From: an uncultured Bacilli bacterium
GTDB lineage: Bacteria; Bacillota_I; Bacilli_A; RF39; UBA660
Assembly (NCBI GenBank): GCA_944363925.1
Contig: CALVVS010000002.1
Coordinates: forward strand, 1-60,190
Reading direction: 5' to 3'
Length of the DNA stretch: 60,190 bases
The first letter of the stretch is position 1. Each line of letters starts with the position of its first letter. Below the pieces are notes generated by a model. It had not been told where the DNA came from. It saw only the letters and a list, made by a program, of their open reading frames with translations, and searched no databases. Below, in pieces: positions 22,616 through 34,785 of this stretch. The position numbers and the translations under genes were made by a program.

Positions 22616-23572
22616 TTAACTTTCTTCAGATTTTATTTTCTCAATTTCAGTTTCAGATAAACCTGTAAGTTTTGCAATTTCTGATACATCCATTTTAGAT
22701 TTAAGCATATTTTTAGCTATTTGCTTAATTCCTTGACTAATTCCTTGTTCAAGACCTTTTTCAATTCCTTGATTAAATCCTTGTTCAAGACCTTGTTCGA
22801 GACCTTCTTTAATAGCTTCATCTCGATCAGTATTCCTCATAAGTTCGTCCATCTCTTCCTTGTCATATAACCCAATAATTCTAGGGTTTTGATTTAAATC
22901 GTCAATTATTTTAACCATATTTTCTAAATCTTCATCTCCTTTAGCTAACTTCTTAATTTCCTTCTTATCAAGAAGTTGAAATATTACTAAAGCCTTTTCA
23001 ACCTTTGAAAGAGACTCCTTACCTAAATTATAATACTTTTTTAAAGGATTGGCCATATTTATATGAATTCTTCTAAAATTTTCTTCATCTATATATAAAC
23101 CATCGTCACTTTTCATAGAAAAATTTGTAAATAATTGATTACCAAATCTTTTAACAGTATTAAAATTAATCTGTAATACTTCACAGTCTTCTAACTTTCC
23201 TCCAGAATTATATTGCTCAGTAGCTATTTTATGGTGATATAGATTATTTTTTATTCTTTGACTCTTGTTTAAAGACCTATTAGCTTCAATATTTAAAGTT
23301 GTCCCACTTATTTCAGCTAAAATATCCGTAATCTTTTTTCTTTCATAGACATTGCTGACAGGAAGTTCCGTATTAATAAACTTCAAATTATCATAGACAA
23401 ACTTAGGAGAATAATTAGTAACTTCTCCAATAATTAAAGAAAGTAATCTTCGAAATCTTAAATCTTGAATAATTGCTTTAAAAACACAGTCAGCCATAGA
23501 AATCATATATTCTTCATCATTTGGCCTTTTAACAGGTTTATCAGTCTTTTCTAAAAGTGCATTCATTGCCAC
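22616..23572 (-). CDS. Rpn/YhgA-like PD-(D/E)XK recombination-promoting nuclease/putative transposase
   Basis: N-terminal DCVFKAI..., D-x-E core (TDILAEISGTTLNIEANRS). C-terminal GLEQGxxQG repeats followed by an HTH-like tail (IAKLTGLSETEIEKI), as is typical of this family. Confidence 0.65.
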   Translation of the reverse strand: MAMNALLEKTDKPVKRPNDEEYMISMADCVFKAIIQDLRFRRLLSLIIGEVTNYSPKFVYDNLKFINTELPVSNVYERKKITDILAEISGTTLNIEANRSLNKSQRIKNNLYHHKIATEQYNSGGKLEDCEVLQINFNTVKRFGNQLFTNFSMKSDDGLYIDEENFRRIHINMANPLKKYYNLGKESLSKVEKALVIFQLLDKKEIKKLAKGDEDLENMVKIIDDLNQNPRIIGLYDKEEMDELMRNTDRDEAIKEGLEQGLEQGFNQGIEKGLEQGISQGIKQIAKNMLKSKMDVSEIAKLTGLSETEIEKIKSEES

Positions 23573-24812: not shown

Positions 24813-26084
24813 TCAATTCTTCAAACATCCAATAGGAACAACATAAACCCCATCTTTACGTTTATAAGCATAATTACCTACACCTATTACTACCATCAAA
24901 AAAGAAGGCTTTTTCATTTTACTAGTATCCAATTTATTATTTAATTTTATCAAATTATTAACACCTTCTTCTATAAGTTTATCGCCACCAAGCTTAATTT
25001 CAATAAGCCCGTAAGAACCATTTCTTAAATGAATAACAGCATCACACTCAAGCGCAGAAGCATCCCTATAATGATATAAAGTACCATTAAGACTTTCAGC
25101 ATACACTCGCAAATCTCTAATACAAAGATTTTCAAATATAAAACCAAATGTATTTAAATCATTAATCAAATCAAGTGGACCTAACCCCAAAGCCGCAACT
25201 GCTATCGAAGGATCAACAAAATATCTAGTATCCGCAGTTCTTATAGCTGTTTTACTTCTTAAATTAGGATTCCAAGCTAACACCTCATCTATAACAAATA
25301 TCTTCTTTAAAGCATTAATATATGATAAAACCGTATCGGTATCTAAAGAAAATGAATCATTATTAACAATATCGTTTCTTAAAGTTAAAATAGAAGCTTG
25401 ACTTCCAATATTTCTAGCATAACTTCTCATCAAATGCTTAACTCTGTTAGCCTCTCTATTTACTCCATCAACTCTTGAAATATCAGAGTTAACCACCGCA
25501 TCATAATAATCAAATGCTTGTTCCAAAGCAATATCTTTTTCCAGCGAAATACTTCTAGGCCAACCACCTCTACAACACAAATAAGCAATATCCTCAAGCG
25601 ATAACTTATTAACTCCATTAATATCTTTACCTTCAAACAAATCTTGCAAACTCACTACTCCAGATGATTCTAATGACTCAAACAAAGTCATTGGACGCAT
25701 AAGCAAAAAAGAAAACCTACCAGTCCCAGTATGCGTTATCAAACTCTTATCAGTAGGTACTGATGAACCAGTCAAAATAAATTGTCCTTCTTCCTTTCTG
25801 TGGTCAACTTCAAATCTAACAGCATCCCAAATTTTAGGCGCAATTTGCCACTCATCTATAAGTCGTGGAACAGCTCCTTCAAGTAATAAACTAGGACTAA
25901 TATCAGCAAGCATCATATTTTGTTCTTTACTATCAGGATTAGCCATATAAAGTATACTCTTAGCTATTTGTTCAGCCGTTGTCGTTTTCCCACACCATTT
26001 AGGGCCCTCAATCAAAACAGCTCCCTTACCTTTTAATTTTCTAATAAGTAAATCATCAACTACCCTTTTTTTATAATTATCCAT
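24813..26084 (-). CDS. AAA ATPase with C-terminal DUF4143/PD-(D/E)XK-like domain (COG1373-type), paralog A
   Basis: Walker A GPKWCGKTTT, Walker B RLIDEW, C-terminal ECDAVIHL...GLIEIKLG (D..ExK-like). About 55% identity by eye to 32304-33569. Confidence 0.75.
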   Translation of the reverse strand: MDNYKKRVVDDLLIRKLKGKGAVLIEGPKWCGKTTTAEQIAKSILYMANPDSKEQNMMLADISPSLLLEGAVPRLIDEWQIAPKIWDAVRFEVDHRKEEGQFILTGSSVPTDKSLITHTGTGRFSFLLMRPMTLFESLESSGVVSLQDLFEGKDINGVNKLSLEDIAYLCCRGGWPRSISLEKDIALEQAFDYYDAVVNSDISRVDGVNREANRVKHLMRSYARNIGSQASILTLRNDIVNNDSFSLDTDTVLSYINALKKIFVIDEVLAWNPNLRSKTAIRTADTRYFVDPSIAVAALGLGPLDLINDLNTFGFIFENLCIRDLRVYAESLNGTLYHYRDASALECDAVIHLRNGSYGLIEIKLGGDKLIEEGVNNLIKLNNKLDTSKMKKPSFLMVVIGVGNYAYKRKDGVYVVPIGCLKN

Positions 26085-26138
26085 TTCATCATCACCTTTT
26101 CCTCATTTTACCATATCATAAATTATTTATCAATGAAT

Positions 26139-26199
26139 ATTCGGTAATTTGTAGATTTTTTATTCGGTAATTTGTAAGAAAATCATTCGGTAATTTGTA
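26139..26199. repeat. Three direct repeats ATTCGGTAATTTGTA at exact 23-bp spacing, upstream of ATPase paralog A
   Basis: Cores at 26139-26153, 26162-26176 and 26185-26199. They lie just upstream of a TTGATA-17nt-TAAAAT minus-strand promoter. Confidence 0.9.
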
Positions 26200-26204
26200 A
26201 ATTT

Positions 26205-27338
26205 TTAAAATTGGTTTTTTAAAGTTATTTTCATTAAATTATAGCAGTTGCCCCACTTTAAATGTCCTCTATAACTACTAATTATTCTTAAACCACTCTC
26301 TAAAGGAATTTTCTCTTCACGAATTAACTTCATTTTCCGTTTAAAATTTTTCTTTGTTAATTTTCGAACTTTCAGTATTACTTTATTATCTATAATACAG
26401 TATCTAAACCCTAAAAAATCAAGTCCTTCTTTACTAACATTAATAATCTTCGTTTTCCTATTCAAACAAAGACGATACTTTAATACCATCTTTTCTATTT
26501 CCTTTAGACAATTCTTTAAATATTCCTTGTCATTAGAAAGTATTACCCCATCATCCATATATCTTATATAATACTTAGATCCCAAATCTTCTTTAATAAA
26601 ATGGTCCAGTTCATTTAAGTAAAATACGGCTAATATCTGACTTGTCATATTTCCAATCGGTAAACCTCGACCTTTTTTATATAAAGGAATTTGCTCAATC
26701 TCTCTAATTTTAATATTCTTTTCTTTATCACTTATATTTAACCCTCGAATTCGCTCTATCTCCATATTCTTTAATTTTTCTATCGTCCTATTAACATACT
26801 CCCTATCAGTTGAATAAATAATTTTTTTAAGTATATCTAAAACCTTTTTATCTTTAATTTTTTTATTAAGTAAATCTAACAAAATCTCATGGTCTATATT
26901 ATAAAAATACTTACTAATATCATACTTAAGTGCATAAATCGTCTCACCTTTTAAATTATTCAAATATTTTTTTATAAGTTTAATTCCAAAATGCGTACCT
27001 TTATTTAACCTTGTCGCAATATTTGTCTCAATCAAACATCTATCCAATACCAGTAATAAAAACTTAGATGCCACCACATGATTAATTAACTTATCATAAA
27101 TATTTTGACTCATAATAATTCTATACTTGGGCTCTTGAATTAAAAATATATTGTACATCCCACCCGCATAATTCTCATTTTCAAAAGTCTTTTTAACCCG
27201 GCTAATATTTATAGAATAAAAATCTTCAAATCTTTTAATCTTATATTTATTTTTAGTATTAACTCTAATTTGTCTCCTATAAACCTTTATAATATCTTCC
27301 ATACTAACACTATCATATAGATTCCGTCTTCTTTTCAT
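26205..27338 (-). CDS. DGR-type reverse transcriptase
   Basis: RT motifs YDISKYFYNIDH, GLPIGNMTSQ (DGR hallmark I/LGxxxSQ), YIRYMDDGVIL (YxDD), LDFLGFRY. Adjacent to avd and the TR. Confidence 0.93.
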   Translation of the reverse strand: MKRRRNLYDSVSMEDIIKVYRRQIRVNTKNKYKIKRFEDFYSINISRVKKTFENENYAGGMYNIFLIQEPKYRIIMSQNIYDKLINHVVASKFLLLVLDRCLIETNIATRLNKGTHFGIKLIKKYLNNLKGETIYALKYDISKYFYNIDHEILLDLLNKKIKDKKVLDILKKIIYSTDREYVNRTIEKLKNMEIERIRGLNISDKEKNIKIREIEQIPLYKKGRGLPIGNMTSQILAVFYLNELDHFIKEDLGSKYYIRYMDDGVILSNDKEYLKNCLKEIEKMVLKYRLCLNRKTKIINVSKEGLDFLGFRYCIIDNKVILKVRKLTKKNFKRKMKLIREEKIPLESGLRIISSYRGHLKWGNCYNLMKITLKNQF

Positions 27339-27663
27339 TTCTCATCCATCCATAAATCTGTTTTAAAATATCTAGTAAATGTAAAGAGACCTTTTGATAT
27401 TTTTTATAAGAAATATACTTTTTATCAACTGCCGTCTTCAAATAAAAATCAATCATCCTAATATTAACAACTATTCTCGTCTGATAATATGCCCGCTTAT
27501 CCTTAAACTCACTAGCCATATATGTAAACTCTAAAATATCATACATCGTTTGACTAATTTTGTCCCTAAGAACTTTTTCTTTAGCCGGAAAATTAGTAAT
27601 AATCTTATCTAAATATAAAATTGTTTTTTTTATATTAATCACTACCCTAAAATTATCTACCAT
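27313..27663 (-). CDS. avd: Avd-like accessory variability determinant (four-helix-bundle protein)
   Basis: 116 aa, basic, helical. Its position directly upstream of the RT, overlapping it, is typical of DGR Avd. Confidence 0.75.
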   Translation of the reverse strand: MVDNFRVVINIKKTILYLDKIITNFPAKEKVLRDKISQTMYDILEFTYMASEFKDKRAYYQTRIVVNIRMIDFYLKTAVDKKYISYKKYQKVSLHLLDILKQIYGWMRNEKKTESI

Positions 27664-28067
27664 AAAATTTCCTCAACTTTATCCAATACATCCATAATTT
27701 TTGAATTATTTTTTAAAACTCTAAGCCTGTCATACACTTTATTAATTCTATCTTCCAAATTCAAATCATCTGGGACAAACTTATCATAATTGTTAAAATT
27801 AAACTTCTTACGTGTTATATCATCATCTTCAATAATTACATAATTTATTTTAAAACTCTTAAACTTTGAAATCACCTTATCATAACTGTTAATAGGAAAA
27901 CCAACTCTTTTTATACCATTAATATCTTTAATCTTATAACTAAATAAGTTATTTAAAACATATACATCCTCGCCATAACACTCATAGAAAATACCCACCT
28001 TTATTAAAACTACATATTTTGGATATTTATTTTTATATAAATTATATTTATCAATTATTTTTACCAT
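27657..28067 (-). CDS. Stand-alone MutS domain I (mismatch-binding domain)-like protein, DGR accessory ORF
   Basis: KYPKYVVLIKVGIFYECYGEDVYVLNNLF...IKRVGFPINSYDKVISKF..FKINYVIIE aligns by eye to E. coli MutS [22 protein letters not shown]...IPMAGIPYHAVENYLAKL...VAICEQ. The Phe-x-Glu mismatch-contact motif is included. 7-nt overlap with avd. Confidence 0.7.
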   Translation of the reverse strand: MVKIIDKYNLYKNKYPKYVVLIKVGIFYECYGEDVYVLNNLFSYKIKDINGIKRVGFPINSYDKVISKFKSFKINYVIIEDDDITRKKFNFNNYDKFVPDDLNLEDRINKVYDRLRVLKNNSKIMDVLDKVEEILW

Positions 28068-28084
28068 ACAACCTCCAACAAAAA

Positions 28085-28125
28085 AGCAGTATCAAACAAA
28101 GGGATAATCCCTAATTGGTACTGCT
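28085..28125 (-). terminator. Terminator-like hairpin between the TR region and the MutS-I-like ORF
   Basis: Minus strand reads AGCAGTA...TACTGCT followed by TTTTTT, immediately before the GGAGG RBS of 28067. Confidence 0.5.
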
Positions 28126-28244
28126 AAAAATATAGTTTTTCTCATATCATATCTCTTTCAAATATTATAGACCATTAACTAATCACTAGGACATATTTAA
28201 TAATCAATTTTACTAAAAATATCTCTGACTATATTTAATATTTA

Positions 28245-28279
28245 GTTAGGAAACAATTTGTCGATGTAGTTTTCCTAAC
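28245..28279 (-). other. 9-bp stem-loop downstream (minus strand) of the TR
   Basis: GTTAGGAAA / TTTCCTAAC arms with a 17-nt loop. Confidence 0.5.
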
Positions 28280-28361
28280 CTGGGACAATACTTATTCTCT
28301 AATCTTTTCATTATGACCATATTAGTTCATAACCCATAGTGTTCTAGAGAGTTCCAGACAG

Positions 28362-28465
28362 CCGGACGGACCGCATTGGTATTGTTCGCATTGTTGTTGT
28401 TGAAGTTGCCGTTGTTGTTGTTGACATTGAACACGTTGTTAGAGTTGCCGGAATTAGGCGACAAC
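28362..28465 (-). repeat. DGR template repeat (TR)
   Basis: 104-nt gapless match to 28677-28780. All 17 mismatches are at TR adenines (coding strand). The N-rich (AAC/AAT) reading frame means the tracked ORF 28327-28521 is the TR, not a gene. Confidence 0.93.
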
Positions 28466-28507
28466 CCAAACAAATCAATCATATTTAGTATTGCCCCATA
28501 ACTGTCA

Positions 28508-28575
28508 CCGAAAAATTTCATTTTTCGGCCTTTAGCGAGGCAGACGCCCCGCTACCAAACTCCTAACGGAGTTTG
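28508..28575 (-). other. Three consecutive stem-loops between the target stop codon and the TR (putative 5' part of the DGR RNA)
   Basis: Hairpins at 28508-28528 (CCGAAAAAT/ATTTTTCGG), 28535-28552 (closes with a G.U pair only on the minus-strand RNA) and 28556-28575 (8-bp stem CAAACTCC/GGAGTTTG, 4-nt loop). This is a GC-rich patch in an AT-rich genome. Confidence 0.5.
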
Positions 28576-28602
28576 CCAAAATGATATACCTTATTACACA
28601 AC

Positions 28603-29505
28603 TTATCCCAAAGTATATGGGTTATTTTGGGAACCATTTCCACCAGTTATTTTGACCTCAGAGCTTAGATAGACGACCGGACGGACCGCAAAGGTAAAGT
28701 ACGCATCGTTGTAGCTGAAGCTGCCGTTGTAGTCGCTGACATCGAACACGTAGCTAGAGGTGCCGGAATAAGGCGACAACGTCCACCACCAGTTACTCGA
28801 ATAAAACATCCATGTGGTTCCTTTACATTGTGCAGAATTCCATATTTGCTGCACTGTACCACAGCTACTTTTATTACTATTACTTCTTACATATTCACTT
28901 GCCGTAACCAATGCTACTTTTCCGTTCCATTTGCTTGCTTTTTCATTTTTTATGGTATTTGCCATATTATTATCATTAGATGCTACTGCACCAATACTCC
29001 AATCTTTAGCTACTATTTGACTTTGAGCTGTACTATTTAATCTATTATAATATGTGCTATTCAAATATGTATTCAAACTTGCTGGTCTGGCCCAATTATT
29101 ACTATTAGAACTATCCCACACTCGATTTCCTATACTATTTATTCTCATTATCTTTATTGTTCCATCACACTCTATTGATACTATGCGCCAACCGGCTTTT
29201 TCATTATTGAAAGTTATATAGTTATTTGGATTTTTTCCTGTAAAGAAATACCTGCACTCATATGGGTCTTTTTCTAACCCCGCATCTTCGATTATTTGCT
29301 CACCTGCTGGTGGTTCTTTTGTACACTCAGTATAAAGTTCGTCTATAGCTCCTTTAACTGTCGTACTCGAAAGACCGCTTTCTGTATTATCATAACTTAC
29401 CTCATTTGAAGGAAATGTAACTGCCGCATATACTAATGTACCCATACATAAAATTACACCTACTATAAAACCAATTATATTTTTCTTTATATAATCTTTT
29501 TTCAT
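28603..29505 (-). CDS. DGR target (variable) protein; membrane-anchored/secreted, C-terminal VR-bearing ligand-binding domain (C-type-lectin-like fold inferred)
   Basis: N-terminal TM/signal segment. VR encodes LSPYSGTSSYVFDVSDYNGSFSYNDAYFTFAVRP near the C-terminus. The WWWTLSP...FAVRPV pattern is as in CLec/DUF1566-type DGR targets. Confidence 0.88.
   Translation of the reverse strand: MKKDYIKKNIIGFIVGVILCMGTLVYAAVTFPSNEVSYDNTESGLSSTTVKGAIDELYTECTKEPPAGEQIIEDAGLEKDPYECRYFFTGKNPNNYITFNNEKAGWRIVSIECDGTIKIMRINSIGNRVWDSSNSNNWARPASLNTYLNSTYYNRLNSTAQSQIVAKDWSIGAVASNDNNMANTIKNEKASKWNGKVALVTASEYVRSNSNKSSCGTVQQIWNSAQCKGTTWMFYSSNWWWTLSPYSGTSSYVFDVSDYNGSFSYNDAYFTFAVRPVVYLSSEVKITGGNGSQNNPYTLG
28677..28780 (-). 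repeat. DGR variable repeat (VR) with GC-rich IMH-like 3' end
   Basis: See the TR. The shared 3' GC-rich element (coding strand GCGGTCCGTCCGG) is followed by flanks that diverge between VR and TR. Confidence 0.93.
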
Positions 29506-29515
29506 GATACCCCTC

Positions 29516-29596
29516 CTAAATAAAATAGACTAAAAGAAGTGCTAAAACTAAACCTAACAAATAACTTTTCACAAACTCTTTTACTTTTCCTTTCAT
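29516..29596 (-). CDS. Possible 26-aa hydrophobic upstream peptide
   Basis: My translation: MKGKVKEFVKSYLLGLVLALLLVYFI. Its stop TAG overlaps the GGAGGGG RBS of the DGR target gene. No homology evidence. Confidence 0.25.
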   Translation of the reverse strand: MKGKVKEFVKSYLLGLVLALLLVYFI

Positions 29597-29771
29597 ACTA
29601 TTACACATCCTTCCTTCATAAAACCAAATTCATATACTTTTAAACAAATCGTTAAAATATAAGGTACAGCTAACTACAAATATTTATATAAAACAAAGCC
29701 AATTTATCTAACCACTACCATACTTCTTCATTTTTTTCACTCTCCTTATCTTATAATCACAGTATATCACA

Positions 29772-29919
29772 ATATAATCTTGCAGTAAATAGTTCGTGTG
29801 ATTATTTTGCAGTAAATAGTATCATACTTGACGAAGGGGGATAGTTAAATATGGTATTAAAGTTTGATAATCTCAAAGATTTACTAATATTTAATATTAA
29901 ATATTATCGGTACCAAAAT
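29772..29919. repeat. 148-bp direct repeat, left copy, flanking the IS
   Basis: Matches 31889-32036 with 4 mismatches (29853, 29862, 29886, 29913). Contains the XRE promoter/operator region and the first 23 codons. Confidence 0.92.
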
Positions 29920-29937
29920 CCGGAGTTTGACAGTTGA
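29851..29937 (+). pseudogene. Truncated 5' copy of the XRE regulator gene, running into the IS end
   Basis: MVLKFDNLKDLLIFNIKYYRYQN then IS-derived codons and a stop. Duplicate of 31968 onward. Confidence 0.7.
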
Positions 29938-31888
29938 GTGAAATTAATATAGATAGTTTGCCTTTATAGAATAAGGGTTTTATTTTGTCAAGTTTTTGGC
30001 ATTTTATGGTTGTATAATTTTGTATAATATGATAAAAGGTTATTAAGGTAGTGATGTTATGTTTATTAAAAAATGTAAATATTCAAATGGAAAAACTTTT
30101 TTATCAATTGTTCATGGTTATAAACAAGATGGTAAAGTTAAACATTTAACTATTAAAAAATTGGGCTACTTGGAAGATATTTTATTAGAACATGATGATA
30201 TAGATGCTTTTTTAAAAGAACAATTATTAAATTGTCAAAATGAATTTGATGTTGACAAAGGTATTTTTATTAAAAATGAAAAAATGGACTTTTCTAAACG
30301 ATATATATTTAATCTAGGTTACTCTATTTTAAAACAAATATACAATGAACTTGGTTTGAAAGAATTCTTTAAAGATAAACAGAAGAAACTAAAAATGAAT
30401 TATAATCTAAACTCTATTTTTGAACTCCTAATTTATTCTAGAATTTTATTTCCAGCTAGTAAAAATGAAACTTATAATAACAAAGATATATTTTTTGATA
30501 ATTTTGATTTTTCTTTAAAAGACTTATATCGTTCACTAGATTATTTTAATGGTTTCAAAGATGAACTTCAAACTCTACTTTGGAATAATACTAAAGATAA
30601 ATATAAAAGAGATGCTTCTACTTCTTACTATGACTGTACCAATTATTATTTTGAAATTTCATATAATGATGAAGATTTAATTGATGAAAATGGTAACATT
30701 TTAGAAAAAGGTTACAGAAAAAAAGGACCTTCTAAAGAACACAGACCTGAACCTATAATCGGTCTTGGCTTATTAATGGATAAAACTGGTATTCCACTTT
30801 CTTATAATTTGTTCCCGGGCAATCAAAGTGAAAAAATCACTTTAAGACCCACTTTAAAAAATACTAAGTCTAACTTTGGTATTGATAAAACTATTGTTGT
30901 GGCTGATAGAGGCCTAAATACTTCTGATAATATATTTTTCTTAGCTGGTAAAAATAATGACACATCAAACAAAGATGGTTATGTATATGGTCAAAATGTC
31001 CTTTCTTCTGACAAAGAATTTAAAGATTGGGTTTTAAATCAAGATGGATATATTACTGATATATTTACTGAAGATAATGAAGAAATACATTTTAAACATA
31101 AATCTAGAATTTATGCGAAAACTATTCAAATTGAAAGAAATGGTAAAAGGACAAATAAATATACTGTTTACCAAAAGCAAATGGTTTATTTTTCACAAAA
31201 ATATGCGGATAAACAAAAACGTGAACGTGATTTAGCTATAGCTAAAGCCAAAGATTTAATTAATAACCCAGGCAAATATACTAGAGCCACTTCTGTTGGA
31301 GCTGCCGGTTTTATAAACAATCTTTCCTTTGATAAAAATACTGGTGAGGTTATAGATAAAAATTTATCTTTAAACATCGATAAAATTAAAGATTTAGAAA
31401 GATTTGATGGTTATTATTCTATTGTTACTAGTGAAAAAGAACTATCAGACAAAGAAATAAGGGATATTTATAGTGGTTTATGGAAGATTGAAGAAACTTT
31501 TAAAATTACTAAAAGCGAACTTAAAACTAGACCTATTTATGTTTGGACTAAAGAACATATTGAAGCTCACTTTTTAACCTGTTTTATTTCTTTAGTTATA
31601 CTTAGATTACTTCAACAAAGAACAAATTACAAATATTCTACTAAAGAGCTTATCAAATCATTAAAAACTTTAAATGTTAGATATCAAAACGCAAACTATT
31701 ATCAACTATTAAACTATTCAAAACAAATTGATGATATTTCTCGTTGTTTTAATATTGATTTTTCAAATTCATTAATATCTAAGAAAAAAATTTCAAATTT
31801 ATTAAAATAATTTATATTATACAACCTATTCAAAATGAGTTAAGCCTTGTTTTTATTAGCTTAACTCTTTTTTACTGTCAAACTCAGG
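29920..31888 (+). mobile_element. IS1634-family (IS4-related) insertion sequence, about 1.97 kb
   Basis: Terminal inverted repeats CCGGAGTTTGACAGT (29920-29934) and ACTGTCAAACTCAGG (31874-31888), 14/15 complementary. Single DDE transposase ORF and long flanking direct repeats. Confidence 0.8.
30059..31810 (+). CDS. IS1634-family DDE transposase
   Basis: N-terminus MFIKKCKYSNGKTFLSIVHGYKQDGKVKH.TIKKLGYL is typical of IS1634 transposases. 583 aa; C-terminal Y..LW.IEE.F...K motif (YSGLWKIEETFKITKSEL). Confidence 0.8.
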   Translation: MFIKKCKYSNGKTFLSIVHGYKQDGKVKHLTIKKLGYLEDILLEHDDIDAFLKEQLLNCQNEFDVDKGIFIKNEKMDFSKRYIFNLGYSILKQIYNELGLKEFFKDKQKKLKMNYNLNSIFELLIYSRILFPASKNETYNNKDIFFDNFDFSLKDLYRSLDYFNGFKDELQTLLWNNTKDKYKRDASTSYYDCTNYYFEISYNDEDLIDENGNILEKGYRKKGPSKEHRPEPIIGLGLLMDKTGIPLSYNLFPGNQSEKITLRPTLKNTKSNFGIDKTIVVADRGLNTSDNIFFLAGKNNDTSNKDGYVYGQNVLSSDKEFKDWVLNQDGYITDIFTEDNEEIHFKHKSRIYAKTIQIERNGKRTNKYTVYQKQMVYFSQKYADKQKRERDLAIAKAKDLINNPGKYTRATSVGAAGFINNLSFDKNTGEVIDKNLSLNIDKIKDLERFDGYYSIVTSEKELSDKEIRDIYSGLWKIEETFKITKSELKTRPIYVWTKEHIEAHFLTCFISLVILRLLQQRTNYKYSTKELIKSLKTLNVRYQNANYYQLLNYSKQIDDISRCFNIDFSNSLISKKKISNLLK

Positions 31889-32036
31889 ATATAATCTTGC
31901 AGTAAATAGTTCGTGTGATTATTTTGCAGTAAATAGTATCATACTTGACGAAGGGGGATAGTTAAATATGATATTAAAATTTGATAATCTCAAAGATTTA
32001 CTGATATTTAATATTAAATATTATCGGTATCAAAAT
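31889..32036. repeat. 148-bp direct repeat, right copy
   Basis: See 29772-29919. Confidence 0.92.
31898..31937 (+). promoter_or_regulatory. Two direct 13-bp repeats TGCAGTAAATAGT (candidate operator) upstream of the XRE gene
   Basis: 31898-31910 and 31925-31937. The same pair occurs in the left copy at 29781-29793 and 29808-29820. Confidence 0.5.
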
Positions 32037-32261
32037 AACCTATCACAAGAAAAACTAGCTGAACTATGTTCACTATCATCTAGATATATAACAGATATAG
32101 AAAGAGGTTTGCACTGTCCGACAATTCCAAAATTAGAAATAATAGCTAAAGCTTTAAATATAAAGCCATATATCTTATTTCAAAATCCCCCAAGAAGCCA
32201 AGAAATAATTAACAAAATGCAAAGTACTAGACAATATAATCAAAGAAGAAAAAAACGTTAA
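31968..32261 (+). CDS. XRE-family helix-turn-helix transcriptional regulator
   Basis: HTH_3 pattern LSQEKLAELCSLSSRYITDIERG...P....L..IAKAL. Confidence 0.8.
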   Translation: MILKFDNLKDLLIFNIKYYRYQNNLSQEKLAELCSLSSRYITDIERGLHCPTIPKLEIIAKALNIKPYILFQNPPRSQEIINKMQSTRQYNQRRKKR

Positions 32262-32288
32262 ATTCATCTACACGAACTTAACGTTTTT
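32251..32288. terminator. Bidirectional terminator hairpin between the XRE gene and ATPase paralog B
   Basis: AAAAACGTTAA ... TTAACGTTTTT. A related sequence is seen again at about 34192-34222. Confidence 0.6.
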
Positions 32289-32303
32289 ATAATAAATATA
32301 TTC

Positions 32304-33569
32304 CTAATTTTTTAAACAAGTTATGGGCACAACATATACCCCATCTTCTCTTCTATATGCGTATTTAGTAGCCGTAAGTATCATCAAAAATGATGGTTTA
32401 TTCATTTCACTAGTATCTACAACATTAGAAAACTTTATCAAATTTTTAGCAGCCAATTCAATAGAATCATTGTTTCCTAACTTAATCTCGGCAGCACCCC
32501 ATCTGCCATCTTTTAGATGTACAATAGCATCACATTCTAACCCACTCTTATCGCGATAAAAAAACACATCACCATCTAAACTTTGAGCATAAACTTTTAA
32601 ATCTCTTAAACACAAAGCTTCAAAAATAAAGCCAAATGTTTTAAAATCTTTAAGTAAATCTTTATCAGTTGCCCTAAGTGCAGCTACTGCTATTGAAGGG
32701 TCAATAAAACATCTTTTTGCACTAGTTCTTATATCCGTTTTACTCCTAAGTTTAGGACACCACGCTTCCACATCATCAATTACATATAATTTAGATAAAG
32801 CATTTAAATAATCGACAATAGTCTTTTCAGAAATGGTAGAATCATTATAAAATGTATCATCTTTAATAGTAGCTAAACTCGCCGTTGTGCATATATTTCT
32901 AGATAAACTTCTAATAACCGTGCGAAGTCTATTAGGATTTCTCACAGTCCCATCAACAGTCTTAATATCATTTATAATTAAAGAATCTAAATAATCTCGT
33001 GGCACAATTAAAGCATCTCCCTTATTCAAATCGAGAGAACTTGGCCAGCCACCACGCGCACATAAATAAGCAATATCCTCAAGTTCTTTATTAGACACAC
33101 CTTTAATATCAATAACACTATCAAAAAGTTCACTTAAAGAAACACTGCCAGTAGAATCATTAGATTCATATAAACTCATAGGCCTCATAAGCAATCTGAT
33201 AATTCTACCAGTTCCACTGTGCATAGGTTCATCGTCTCTCGGAGTAATAGAACCAGTTAAAATATATTGATTTTTCAAACCAGTATTATCAACATCATAC
33301 CTAATTGCATCCCAAAGCATTGGAGCATCCTGCCACTCATCTATAAGTCTTGGCTTTTCACCTTCCAAAAGTAAATCAGGTCTCATATTTGCAATTTCTA
33401 AATTATTTTCTCTAGTTCTTGGATTTTGAAGTTCTAATACACTTTTAGCATATTGTTTAGCCGTTGTTGATTTACCACACCACTTAGGTCCAATAATTAA
33501 AACTGCACCATATATTTTCATCCTTTTTTCTAAAATATCATCAAGTAATCTAGGCATATATTTTTTCAT
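32304..33569 (-). CDS. AAA ATPase with DUF4143/PD-(D/E)XK-like C-terminal domain, paralog B
   Basis: GPKWCGKSTT, RLIDEW, ECDAIVHL...AAEIKLG. Confidence 0.75.
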   Translation of the reverse strand: MKKYMPRLLDDILEKRMKIYGAVLIIGPKWCGKSTTAKQYAKSVLELQNPRTRENNLEIANMRPDLLLEGEKPRLIDEWQDAPMLWDAIRYDVDNTGLKNQYILTGSITPRDDEPMHSGTGRIIRLLMRPMSLYESNDSTGSVSLSELFDSVIDIKGVSNKELEDIAYLCARGGWPSSLDLNKGDALIVPRDYLDSLIINDIKTVDGTVRNPNRLRTVIRSLSRNICTTASLATIKDDTFYNDSTISEKTIVDYLNALSKLYVIDDVEAWCPKLRSKTDIRTSAKRCFIDPSIAVAALRATDKDLLKDFKTFGFIFEALCLRDLKVYAQSLDGDVFFYRDKSGLECDAIVHLKDGRWGAAEIKLGNNDSIELAAKNLIKFSNVVDTSEMNKPSFLMILTATKYAYRREDGVYVVPITCLKN

Positions 33570-33621
33570 ATTAAACCTTCTTTCTAATTAATTATATCAC
33601 ATTTATTAAAAAAATAAACTC

Positions 33622-33684
33622 TACTTCCGAATTTGGCACTATTTTACTTCCGAATTTGGCATCATTTTACTTCTGAATTTGGCA
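33622..33684. repeat. Three direct repeats TACTTC(C/T)GAATTTGGCA at exact 23-bp spacing, upstream of ATPase paralog B
   Basis: 33622-33638, 33645-33661, 33668-33684. Same number, spacing and distance to the start codon as the paralog A repeats, but a different sequence. Confidence 0.9.
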
Positions 33685-33774
33685 AAGTCAAAAAAAGAAG
33701 TGCCACTATTTATTTAACACCTCACTATGACTACCAATATTTACTACAATTAATAATTTATTAGAATTTTATAA

Positions 33775-33978
33775 TTAATCATCAGATAATAACGCCTTTT
33801 TTAAATCTTCTACATTATCAAAACTTTTATACTCCTCAGGATACTTTTTAATATAAACAAGTTCTTTAGCAGCCTTTCCAAGTTCATCCTCAGTAAAATA
33901 TTGATATAATTCAAAATTCTCTTTTTCCTGAGCCCCTTTATCAATTTGAACATTTATAGAAGTTGTTAAATTAGACAT
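33775..33978 (-). pseudogene. Internally deleted RelB/DinJ-like antitoxin remnant
   Basis: Shares the N-terminus (SNLTTSINVQID versus ASLTSAINVNVD) and the C-terminus (ALLSDD) with 34498-34785 but lacks the RHH core. A YafQ 3' remnant (..GSHSEV) follows at about 33721-33750. Confidence 0.5.
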
Positions 33979-34228: not shown

Positions 34229-34512
34229 CTATTTAAATAAATCACTATGACTACCAGTATTTACCATTACCAATATTAAATCTTTTTCATAATATTGATA
34301 AATCAATAACCAATCAGTTTCTATATGGCACTCACCACAATTTTGATAATATTTATCATCTTTCAATATATGGTTTTTATATTTTTAATCTAAATCTTCT
34401 TTTAAAGCCAACTTATCAACAATATCTAATAACTTTTCTATACTTTTTCTTTGTTTTAAAACCTTCTTTAAACTTTTTTTATTTTTTTGAATAAAAATCA
34501 ATCATCAGACAA
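34229..34512 (-). pseudogene. yafQ: YafQ/RelE-family toxin pseudogene (frameshift plus in-frame stop)
   Basis: My translation: ..KKSLKKVLKQRKSIEKLLDIVDKLALKEDLD*KYKNHILKDDKYYQNCGECHIETDWLLIYQYYEKDLILVMVNTGSHSDLFK. It has the YafQ hallmarks CHIEPDWLLIY and TGSHSDLF. The ATG overlapping the relB end is out of frame across a poly-A run. Confidence 0.65.
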
Positions 34513-34785
34513 TAAAGCTTCCTTTAAAGATTGTCGATTATCATAGCAAGGATACATATTAGGGTTTTCTATAATTTTTCTTGCCTCATCTAAAGCTCTC
34601 AATGTGTCTTTACTAGGCTTAGGATTAGTTATTTCAAAAGGTATACCATCTTTTTTTATAATTTGTACCAAAAACATATTAATAGCCGTACTCATATTAA
34701 GCCCTAAATCTTTTAAAATAGCAGTTGCCTCTTCTTTAACCTTAGTATCAACATTTACATTAATTGCACTTGTCAAACTAGCCAT
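34498..34785 (-). CDS. relB: RelB/DinJ-family type II antitoxin
   Basis: INVNVDTKVKEEATAILKDLGLNMSTAINMFLVQII ribbon-helix-helix pattern. Confidence 0.8.
   Translation of the reverse strand: MASLTSAINVNVDTKVKEEATAILKDLGLNMSTAINMFLVQIIKKDGIPFEITNPKPSKDTLRALDEARKIIENPNMYPCYDNRQSLKEALLSDD

Follow-up and report, generated by a model that had tools for sequence, protein, structure and literature searches.

DUF4143 (COG1373) is a family listed among the PD-(D/E)XK proteins (PMC3424549), and in the literature that was searched DUF4143 and COG1373 are mentioned by a handful of papers and in lists only, with no upstream array, DNA specificity or autoregulation described. By published counts the candidate defence system PDC-S01 ranks fourth among the defence loci of prokaryotes as a whole, and in rumen genomes no single locus is reported more often; most PDC candidates are said still to await validation, and one PDC-S01 representative in E. 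coli B gave no protection against T4, T5 or T7. Two genes that belong to both groupings, paralogs A and B, lie in a 60,190-nucleotide stretch of DNA (the window, analysed at its full length) from an uncultured Bacilli bacterium (GCA_944363925.1, contig CALVVS010000002.1, positions 1 to 60,190), each of them preceded by an array of three direct repeats at a 23-bp period. From the comparison of these arrays and proteins with those of related loci it appears probable that each protein binds its own array, one protomer to a repeat, and acts as a regulator, probably a repressor, of its own promoter. The two genes and the sites upstream of them are the following.

24813..26084, reverse strand: paralog A, 423 residues, with an AAA_14 ATPase domain, a helical lid, a winged helix (residues 212-290) and a PD-(D/E)xK nuclease-like domain (residues 292-423), from Pfam, PADLOC and AlphaFold2 (AF2).
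32304..33569, reverse strand: paralog B, 421 residues, architecture as in A, from BLASTP, Pfam and PADLOC.
26139..26200, reverse strand: array A, three units with cores at 26185-26200, 26162-26177 and 26139-26154, reading (T/C)TACAAATTACCGAAT on the gene strand, with differing spacers.
33622..33684, reverse strand: array B, three units reading TGCCAAATTC(G/A)GAAGTA on the gene strand, period exactly 23 bp.
26105..26133, reverse strand: promoter-like site of A, TTGATA, 17 nt, TAAAAT, with TG before the -10; the -35 begins 5 nt past the last core.
33591..33618, reverse strand: promoter-like site of B, TTTATT, 16 nt, TATAAT, with a TG extended -10 (TGATATAAT, TGaTATAAT); the -35 begins 4 nt past the last core.
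33664-33691: alternative promoter-like site of B, TTGACT, 16 nt, TAAAAT, overlapping the distal unit of array B.

A preliminary description of this DNA had recognized two co-oriented ATPase genes of about 55% identity, and the two proteins are in fact 55% identical over their full length (BLASTP E 3e-168), both encoded on the reverse strand. The P-loop ATPase N-terminus that it assigned to them is borne out by AAA_14 scores of 55.8 and 49.5 bits (Pfam gathering cut-off 27) and by Walker A (GPKWCGK(T/S)) and Walker B (IDEWQ) motifs that are invariant. Its C-terminal D...ExK nuclease-like motif, ECDA(V/I)(I/V)HL...EIKLG, is present in A and B, with the catalytic residues D348, E362 and K364 invariant across 97 relatives, and DUF4143 scores are 106 and 103.7 bits (cut-off 28.1). 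Both proteins also match the PADLOC PDC-S01 profile PDLC04790 over the full length, with E values of 1.3e-54 (A) and 2.1e-52 (B).

The repeats were likewise found where the preliminary description had placed them, three upstream of each gene at an exact 23-bp spacing. ATTCGGTAATTTGTA occurs exactly at 26139, 26162 and 26185 and has no other match with two or fewer mismatches in the window; TACTTCCGAATTTGGCA is exact at 33622 and 33645 and has one mismatch at 33668, and a search for it on shuffled sequence gave three matches in none of 100 shuffles. On the forward strand the units of array B read TACTTC(C/T)GAATTTGGCA at these same three positions. Across the window Tandem Repeats Finder reports arrays A and B as the only period-23 arrays. 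The cores are identical inside each array and the 7-nt spacers vary. A similar distance from the last repeat to the start codon had been noted for the two genes, and this stands, the values being 54 nt (A) and 52 nt (B) instead of the 53-55 nt given earlier. For neither array does the window hold a second, inverted repeat set of the kind that forms transposon ends.

Conservation of such arrays upstream of homologous genes is observed directly. A one-genome-per-species scan gave at least 599 relatives, from which the best 80 loci were kept; their proteins share 61-75% identity with A, and the loci represent Bacilli, Clostridia, Spirochaetota, Bacteroidota, Verrucomicrobiota, Lentisphaerota, Fibrobacterota, Actinomycetota and Pseudomonadota (at least eight phyla). 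The 78 usable upstream regions were scored for periods of 8-59 bp, together with 339 random control segments from the same loci. The strongest upstream period is 23 in 59 of the 78 and 46 in another 12, and 23 is the strongest in only 5 of the 339 controls; the period-23 score lies above the maximum of all controls in 69 of the 78 regions. The preliminary description had proposed a search for the repeats upstream of homologs in other genomes, and the outcome is thus positive in about 90% of these loci. With units in register, 176 of 177 copy spacings are exactly 23 bp. Arrays hold 2-11 copies (mode 3-4), in a single orientation relative to the gene that is common to all loci, and the last core ends a median of 58 nt ahead of the start codon.

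On the gene strand the units follow the consensus nGCCAAAT-nnn-CCGAA-n-AAAATTn. Within arrays, positions 2-15, a 14-nt core, are 83-97% identical and the spacer positions 17-23 only 48-63%, so the identity of the cores does not stem from recent duplication; selection on the core is to this extent seen directly. Between loci there is almost no variation in CAA (positions 4-6) and A14, and positions 8-13 are only 25-45% identical. Since cores are kept within arrays and differ at positions 8-13 between loci, a locus-specific site is maintained, and by its pattern of conservation the core is the signature of a binding site whose specificity varies by locus. The view that these are functionless tandem repeats that arose by chance or slippage has next to no probability: the genome is AT-rich (31% G+C) and contains many short tandem repeats, as that view would have it, but the period is exact in nearly every spacing across phyla, the core is kept while the spacers drift, and no control segment reaches the same score. 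The periodicity controls and the comparison of core with spacer effectively refute it.

The array moreover keeps a fixed phase to the promoter, whether the locus is of the sigma-70 or of the Bacteroidota type. Among 47 sigma-70-like loci the -35 begins 4-5 nt past the last core in 20, both window genes included, and in 17 the -35 is the last core's own TTGCCA. In loci of the Bacteroidota type the element TAnnTTTG begins 13-17 nt past the last core in 16 of 26 and one period farther in 7 of 26; in 80-nt control segments upstream of the arrays it occurs four times in total. Autorepression is favoured because the proximal protomer would cover the -35/-33 element in two of the three geometries, and repression is accordingly the most likely sign of the regulation, as judged from geometry only. 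The preliminary description had put forward autoregulation or iteron-like loading sites, and this main idea is strongly supported by the recurrence of the arrays in homologous loci and by the covariation described below.

The position of the promoters also bears on the very improbable proposal that the repeats act as RNA, either as a structured 5' leader or as a small RNA. In its favour the repeats of B lie between a possible upstream promoter (TTGACT-16-TAAAAT) and the start codon. The best promoter-like sites, to the contrary, follow the array or share sequence with its last unit, and the conserved feature is a linear bipartite motif, not pairing. A whole-window Rfam search at gathering thresholds and E-value searches of both arrays gave nothing relevant, and folding energies equal those of shuffles (z -0.07 and +0.34); on these results a structured RNA was rejected.

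The nature of the reader is indicated by covariation between protein residues and repeat bases, which is itself a direct observation. Pairs were chosen by mutual information and then examined by parsimony on the protein tree in shared-branch tests. Lysine or arginine at residue 342, which stands in the context HYRD-x-SGLECDA, accompanies C at repeat position 3 in 53 of 55 loci, and other residues accompany a base other than C in 14 of 14; seven of eight protein changes (K/R versus other) fall on the branch of the DNA change (p 2e-9). Positions 2-3 read GC where residue 342 is K/R, and CA, TA or GA where it is S, A, G or N. Residue 250, directly before the invariant T251, behaves similarly with respect to position 11: K250 occurs with G11 in 10 of 12 loci (5 of 6 shared branches, p 1e-7), D or E250 with C11 in 43 of 47 (7 of 9 shared branches, p 9e-9), and R250 accompanies T11. 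The pairings are chemically sensible, Lys/Arg with G and Asp/Glu with C. The cross-controls, residue 342 against position 11 and residue 250 against positions 2-3, are not significant, and neither on the tree is a finer rule that couples E250 to CGG. An unbiased multistate scan of 5980 pairs places residue 342 with position 2 at the top (p 3.7e-8; Bonferroni threshold 8.4e-6), and seven of the top ten pairs join residues 247/250 to positions 10-13 or residues 342/279 to positions 2-3.

The rule extends to loci outside the discovery set and to the two window genes. Eight test loci were used, seven of them newly fetched and one a Bacteroides ovatus plasmid; the repeat type predicted from the protein alone fits all eight, one of them after a 1-nt register shift. 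Paralog A has D at residue 250 and A at residue 342, and its repeats have CCG at positions 11-13 and TA at positions 2-3; paralog B has K at the equivalents of both residues, with GGA and GC at the respective positions, so that the differences between the repeats of A and B match the residue rule exactly. Because the covariation points to it, the ATPase itself very probably reads the repeats, and the suggestion of the preliminary description that paralog-specific sites had co-evolved with a DNA-binding protein, likely the ATPases, receives strong support.

As a second candidate binder the preliminary description had named the XRE protein, and a broader form of that proposal is that some other trans-acting factor, either this nearby regulator or a host transcription factor, occupies the repeats. 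The XRE gene adjoins paralog B, and direct repeats upstream of promoters are typical of many regulators. All-against-all clustering of open reading frames (ORFs) in the 80 loci nevertheless finds no conserved neighbour gene, the only clusters being antisense artefacts inside the ATPase gene, and XRE-like ORFs are present in only two loci; an XRE protein is thus dispensable for reading of the repeats. Since in addition the repeat sequence co-varies with specific ATPase residues and the arrays accompany the gene across phyla, another factor is highly unlikely. The same lack of a conserved neighbour ORF family agrees with the single-gene character of PDC-S01.

A structural frame for these residues is provided by an AF2 model of A, built from a 97-sequence alignment (mean pLDDT 92, pTM 0.92). 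In the model an AAA+ core (about residues 1-140) and a helical lid (146-206) are followed by a winged helix composed of helices 212-224 and 232-242, the recognition helix 249-261, strand 265-270, a wing (271-285) and strand 286-289. The C-terminal structure prediction that the preliminary description had called for thus yields this winged helix and a PD-(D/E)xK nuclease-like domain, the latter with an alpha-beta-beta-beta-alpha-beta core: helix 310-331 and strands 334-340, 346-353 (with D348) and 358-364 (with E362 and K364). In the modelled fold residue 250 occupies the second place of the recognition helix, residue 279 belongs to the wing, and the loop that precedes the catalytic strand with D348 contains residue 342. 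The tracked half-sites are about 9 bp apart, and would therefore lie on the same face of the helix, which fits one protomer per unit.

These features suggest the following mechanism. A solitary protein composed of an AAA+ ATPase, a lid, a winged helix and a PD-(D/E)xK nuclease-like domain would recognize an array upstream of its own promoter, each 23-bp unit being taken by one protomer. The N-terminus of the recognition helix (residues 247-250) would read the promoter-proximal half-site, positions 10-13, which is CCG, CGG or GGN and then conserved AA, and one helical turn from it the distal half-site would be read, at positions 2-3 of GCCAA, by the nuclease-domain loop (342) and the wing (279). 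Head-to-tail protomers, probably linked via their ATPase domains, may fill the 2-11 units to end at or beside the -35/-33 element, and because the filled units end on or beside this promoter element the protein is proposed to control its own transcription, most likely by repression. Because array specificity diversifies, A and B are proposed to act without cross-talk, and array plus gene would constitute a portable, self-contained module. Binding itself, the number of protomers per unit, the direction of the regulatory effect and the part played by ATP are the elements of this scheme that we infer.

Foldseek searches with the model place the archaeal AAA+ ATPase SSO1545 (2fna) first, with further matches to STAND/NLR proteins, RuvB, Orc1/Cdc6 on origin DNA, RFC and MalT; PDB chains give no significant sequence match. 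The presence of Orc1/Cdc6-DNA, RFC and RuvB among the best fold matches is one of the arguments for a very unlikely account in which the arrays are origin iterons or the centromere of a partition system, with the ATPase as the Orc1/Cdc6-like initiator or segregation factor of a cryptic integrated replicon. Units of 17-22 bp with a phasing of about 22 bp beside an autoregulated initiator gene are classic for iterons, and some homologs are on plasmids. Against this, both window genes are chromosomal, located between priA and tig and without replicon genes, and two arrays no more than 8 kb apart occupy the same chromosome; no repeat is inverted and no unwinding element flanks the arrays, homolog-bearing plasmids have their own typed replicons, and known initiators are without a nuclease domain.

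Pairwise comparison of loci delimits the unit of homology. Homologous DNA is shared between loci over an interval that opens with the first repeat and closes a few bases at most from the stop codon, the flanks being unrelated: from -109 to +5 in L015/L018, which are 92% identical, from -105 to +1 in L012/L014 and from -146 to -1 in L020/L042, and homology in L035/L040 and L059/L064 is likewise limited to this interval. This suggests that the array-plus-gene cassette may be exchanged as a unit. Long direct repeats (24-66 nt) flank the cassette in 4 of 67 loci, above every control: they measure 66, 44, 25 and 24 nt in L041, L042, L065 and L010, and the maximum local-alignment score for unrelated pairs of control flanks is 13. 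In L042 a terminator-like hairpin is duplicated, one copy directly before the first repeat and the other directly after the stop codon.

Arrays of other sequence are found with more distant relatives. Period-23 arrays with different units accompany relatives of 49%, 43%, 28% (a Lentilactobacillus hilgardii plasmid) and 25% (a Spartinivicinus plasmid) identity; Thermus and Rhizobium plasmid copies have weak upstream signals at period 22-23, and a Moraxella copy has no upstream period signal. In a metagenome scan, a subfamily with the P-loop GPRQVGKT, about 25% identical to A, has 22 as the best upstream period in 16 of 74 loci and 23 in 5 of 74, as compared with 3 and 6 of 260 controls. Its units resemble ATTCCnGAATTTACG and occur in 2-4 copies at 22-bp spacing (L090-L104, L130, L143). 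Phased direct repeats therefore appear to be widespread in the superfamily while not being detectable everywhere. A second paralog in L053 has a period-23 array of the unrelated unit ATATGGGTCA, and an unrelated paralog beside the gene of L171 (L171:1900-2232) carries AAAAGTCGTGGG twice, at a distance of 33 bp. Viral contigs, scanned with single distant proteins, gave no relatives. The subfamily profile matches 14,854 representatives of 50%-identity clusters at E <=1e-3.

Several points weigh against a self-binding autoregulator. A pure regulator leaves the invariant D...ExK and Walker motifs unaccounted for, and at a spacing of 23 bp each site is turned by about 69 degrees relative to the one before it, an odd arrangement for simple operators. 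Where the array abuts the -35, as in both window genes, activation is equally possible, and the sign of regulation comes from geometry alone because the contigs obtained from public RNA runs are few, broken up and of uncertain RNA or DNA origin, and do not locate a transcription start. The branch tests used a simple neighbour-joining tree, with the best pairs first selected by mutual information. Finally, a best upstream period of 22 or 23 is found in only 21 of the 74 GPRQVGKT loci, and several distant paralogs are without a detectable upstream period.

In a rival account the array serves the ATPase-nuclease chiefly as a platform for assembly or loading, or as a substrate, with regulation secondary. 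Such a role, which would extend autoregulation by the bound protein and does not exclude it, is possible but is given well under an even chance; examples would be nicking at the GCCAA half-site that spreads the cassette, or a defence complex kept poised until titration of the protein by invader DNA releases or induces it. The invariance of D348/E362/K364 and of Walker A and B favours it, as do the apparent reading of the repeat by a nuclease-domain residue, the occurrence of proteins 61-75% identical across phyla, the exact ends of between-locus homology at the first repeat and the stop codon (including the 92%-identical pair in unrelated flanks), the long flanking direct repeats and the membership in PDC-S01. 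It is opposed by the lack of an inverted second repeat copy downstream and of an associated recombinase, by the rarity of the flanking duplications, by the lack of protection in the published PDC-S01 test, and by the cost that nicking of its own chromosome would impose.

A further extension is more speculative and is regarded as rather doubtful: array plus gene may be an autonomous, horizontally mobile, self-addressed module, in which an ATP-driven oligomer on private iterons is the working state of an abundant immune or selfish element. The nuclease could, for example, be held on its own operator until foreign DNA or a phage factor perturbs the complex and so releases, induces or activates it; or else nicking at the array could drive spread of the cassette. 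If true, the two-residue recognition code of such a module would permit its specificity to be reprogrammed.

The interval between the paralogs holds a diversity-generating retroelement (DGR), an insertion sequence (IS) and the XRE gene, as the preliminary description had recognized, and all of these are present; the DGR is genuine, with a reverse transcriptase (RT), Avd and a template repeat/variable repeat (TR/VR) pair. The components are these.

26205-27338: RT of the DGR.
27313-27663: Avd of the DGR.
27657-28067: ORF resembling MutS domain I.
28356-28465: TR.
28671-28780: VR, at the 3' end of the DUF6273 target gene (28603-29505).
30059-31810: IS1634-family transposase gene (NCBIfam E 9e-106).

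The DGR is complete (26205-29505), with 17 of 19 TR/VR mismatches at TR adenines, and metagenomic contigs break or skip inside the VR, with joints at 28690-28800. A link of the paralogs to the DGR is not supported: an RT, Avd or DGR target gene relative lies within 3 kb in none of the 80 homolog loci, so its position between the paralogs is taken as incidental. The IS1634-family gene is flanked by 153-nt direct repeats (29767-29919 and 31884-32036, 96% identical) that duplicate the 5' end of the XRE gene (31968-32261). These repeats presumably correspond to the long target duplication typical of IS1634.

Homologous recombination between A and B had been suggested to excise or invert the intervening block. 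As the two genes are direct repeats, recombination could only delete it, never invert it, and even this is not supported: A and B are 62.5% identical in DNA with a longest exact shared run of 20 nt, and no A/B recombinant joint is present in four chicken-gut metagenomic DNA runs. In three of the four runs the segment 29644-34600 (IS, XRE, B and array B) has almost no depth at 95% identity, and paralog A, array A and the DGR are covered in the three runs lacking it; the B side is thus apparently strain-variable. In run X4 a contig (depth 31 versus about 14 for the full form) joins 24848 to 26140 through 30 unrelated letters and so brings array A nearly up to the final 34 nt of gene A; this joint could be a deletion variant or an assembly chimera. 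Elsewhere in the window a RelB-family antitoxin ORF (34498-34785), with no toxin partner evident nearby, and a 67-residue ORF (33775-33978) share the C-terminal ending ...ALLSDD, and a gene at 22616-23572 for an Rpn-family (recombination-promoting nuclease/putative transposase) C-terminal domain has an in-frame 12/24/36-nt tandem repeat (22727-22813) encoding GLEQG-type repeats.

Comparison with known systems finds partial likeness to each of several. Orc1/Cdc6 on origin recognition boxes (ORBs; 2qby) and SSO1545 (2fna) share the AAA+ core, the lid and a winged helix that reads repeats upstream of its own gene; the domain order in the AF2 model, the Foldseek matches to 2fna and 2qby and the covariation of residue 250 agree with such a relationship at the level of predicted structure. 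Differences are that there is no sequence match to PDB chains, that here the repeats are all direct instead of inverted ORBs, keep a fixed 23-bp period and abut a promoter rather than flank an unwinding element, that an extra PD-(D/E)xK domain would join in the sequence readout, and that there is no sign of a replicon. Iteron Rep proteins and ParR/parC resemble the present loci in their tandem direct repeats at about two helical turns beside the gene of the binder, and on the proposed mechanism also in cooperative filling, in autoregulation and in a fast divergence of specificity that avoids cross-talk of co-resident systems. Phased direct repeats beside the gene of the presumed binder are indeed found here, with binding suggested by the covariation. 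The folds are different, Rep having tandem winged helices without an ATPase and ParR a ribbon-helix-helix, and the present genes do not have the setting of an autonomous replicon, being chromosomal, with two arrays within 8 kb and without replication or segregation partner genes.

MalT, a STAND/AAA+ protein (fold match 8bob), offers the likeness of a nucleotide-dependent oligomerizing ATPase fused to a DNA-binding module that acts on several direct repeats of a promoter. MalT has a LuxR-type helix-turn-helix and a sensor domain and regulates other operons, in contrast to the present proteins, for which their own promoter is the only known target and to which a nuclease-like domain is attached. 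To PDC-S01 the relation is one of hidden Markov model membership and of a single gene, and the difference is that the literature treats PDC-S01 as a protein only. Heterologous tests without the native upstream region, or that ignore autoregulation, may accordingly be uninformative. The arrays define DNA ligands for binding, structural and nuclease assays, and the family offers a natural set of orthogonal protein-operator pairs. A cognate 22-23-bp array, together with its apparent reading by the protein it precedes and the residue-base rule, would thus be the first concrete molecular handle on this abundant family.

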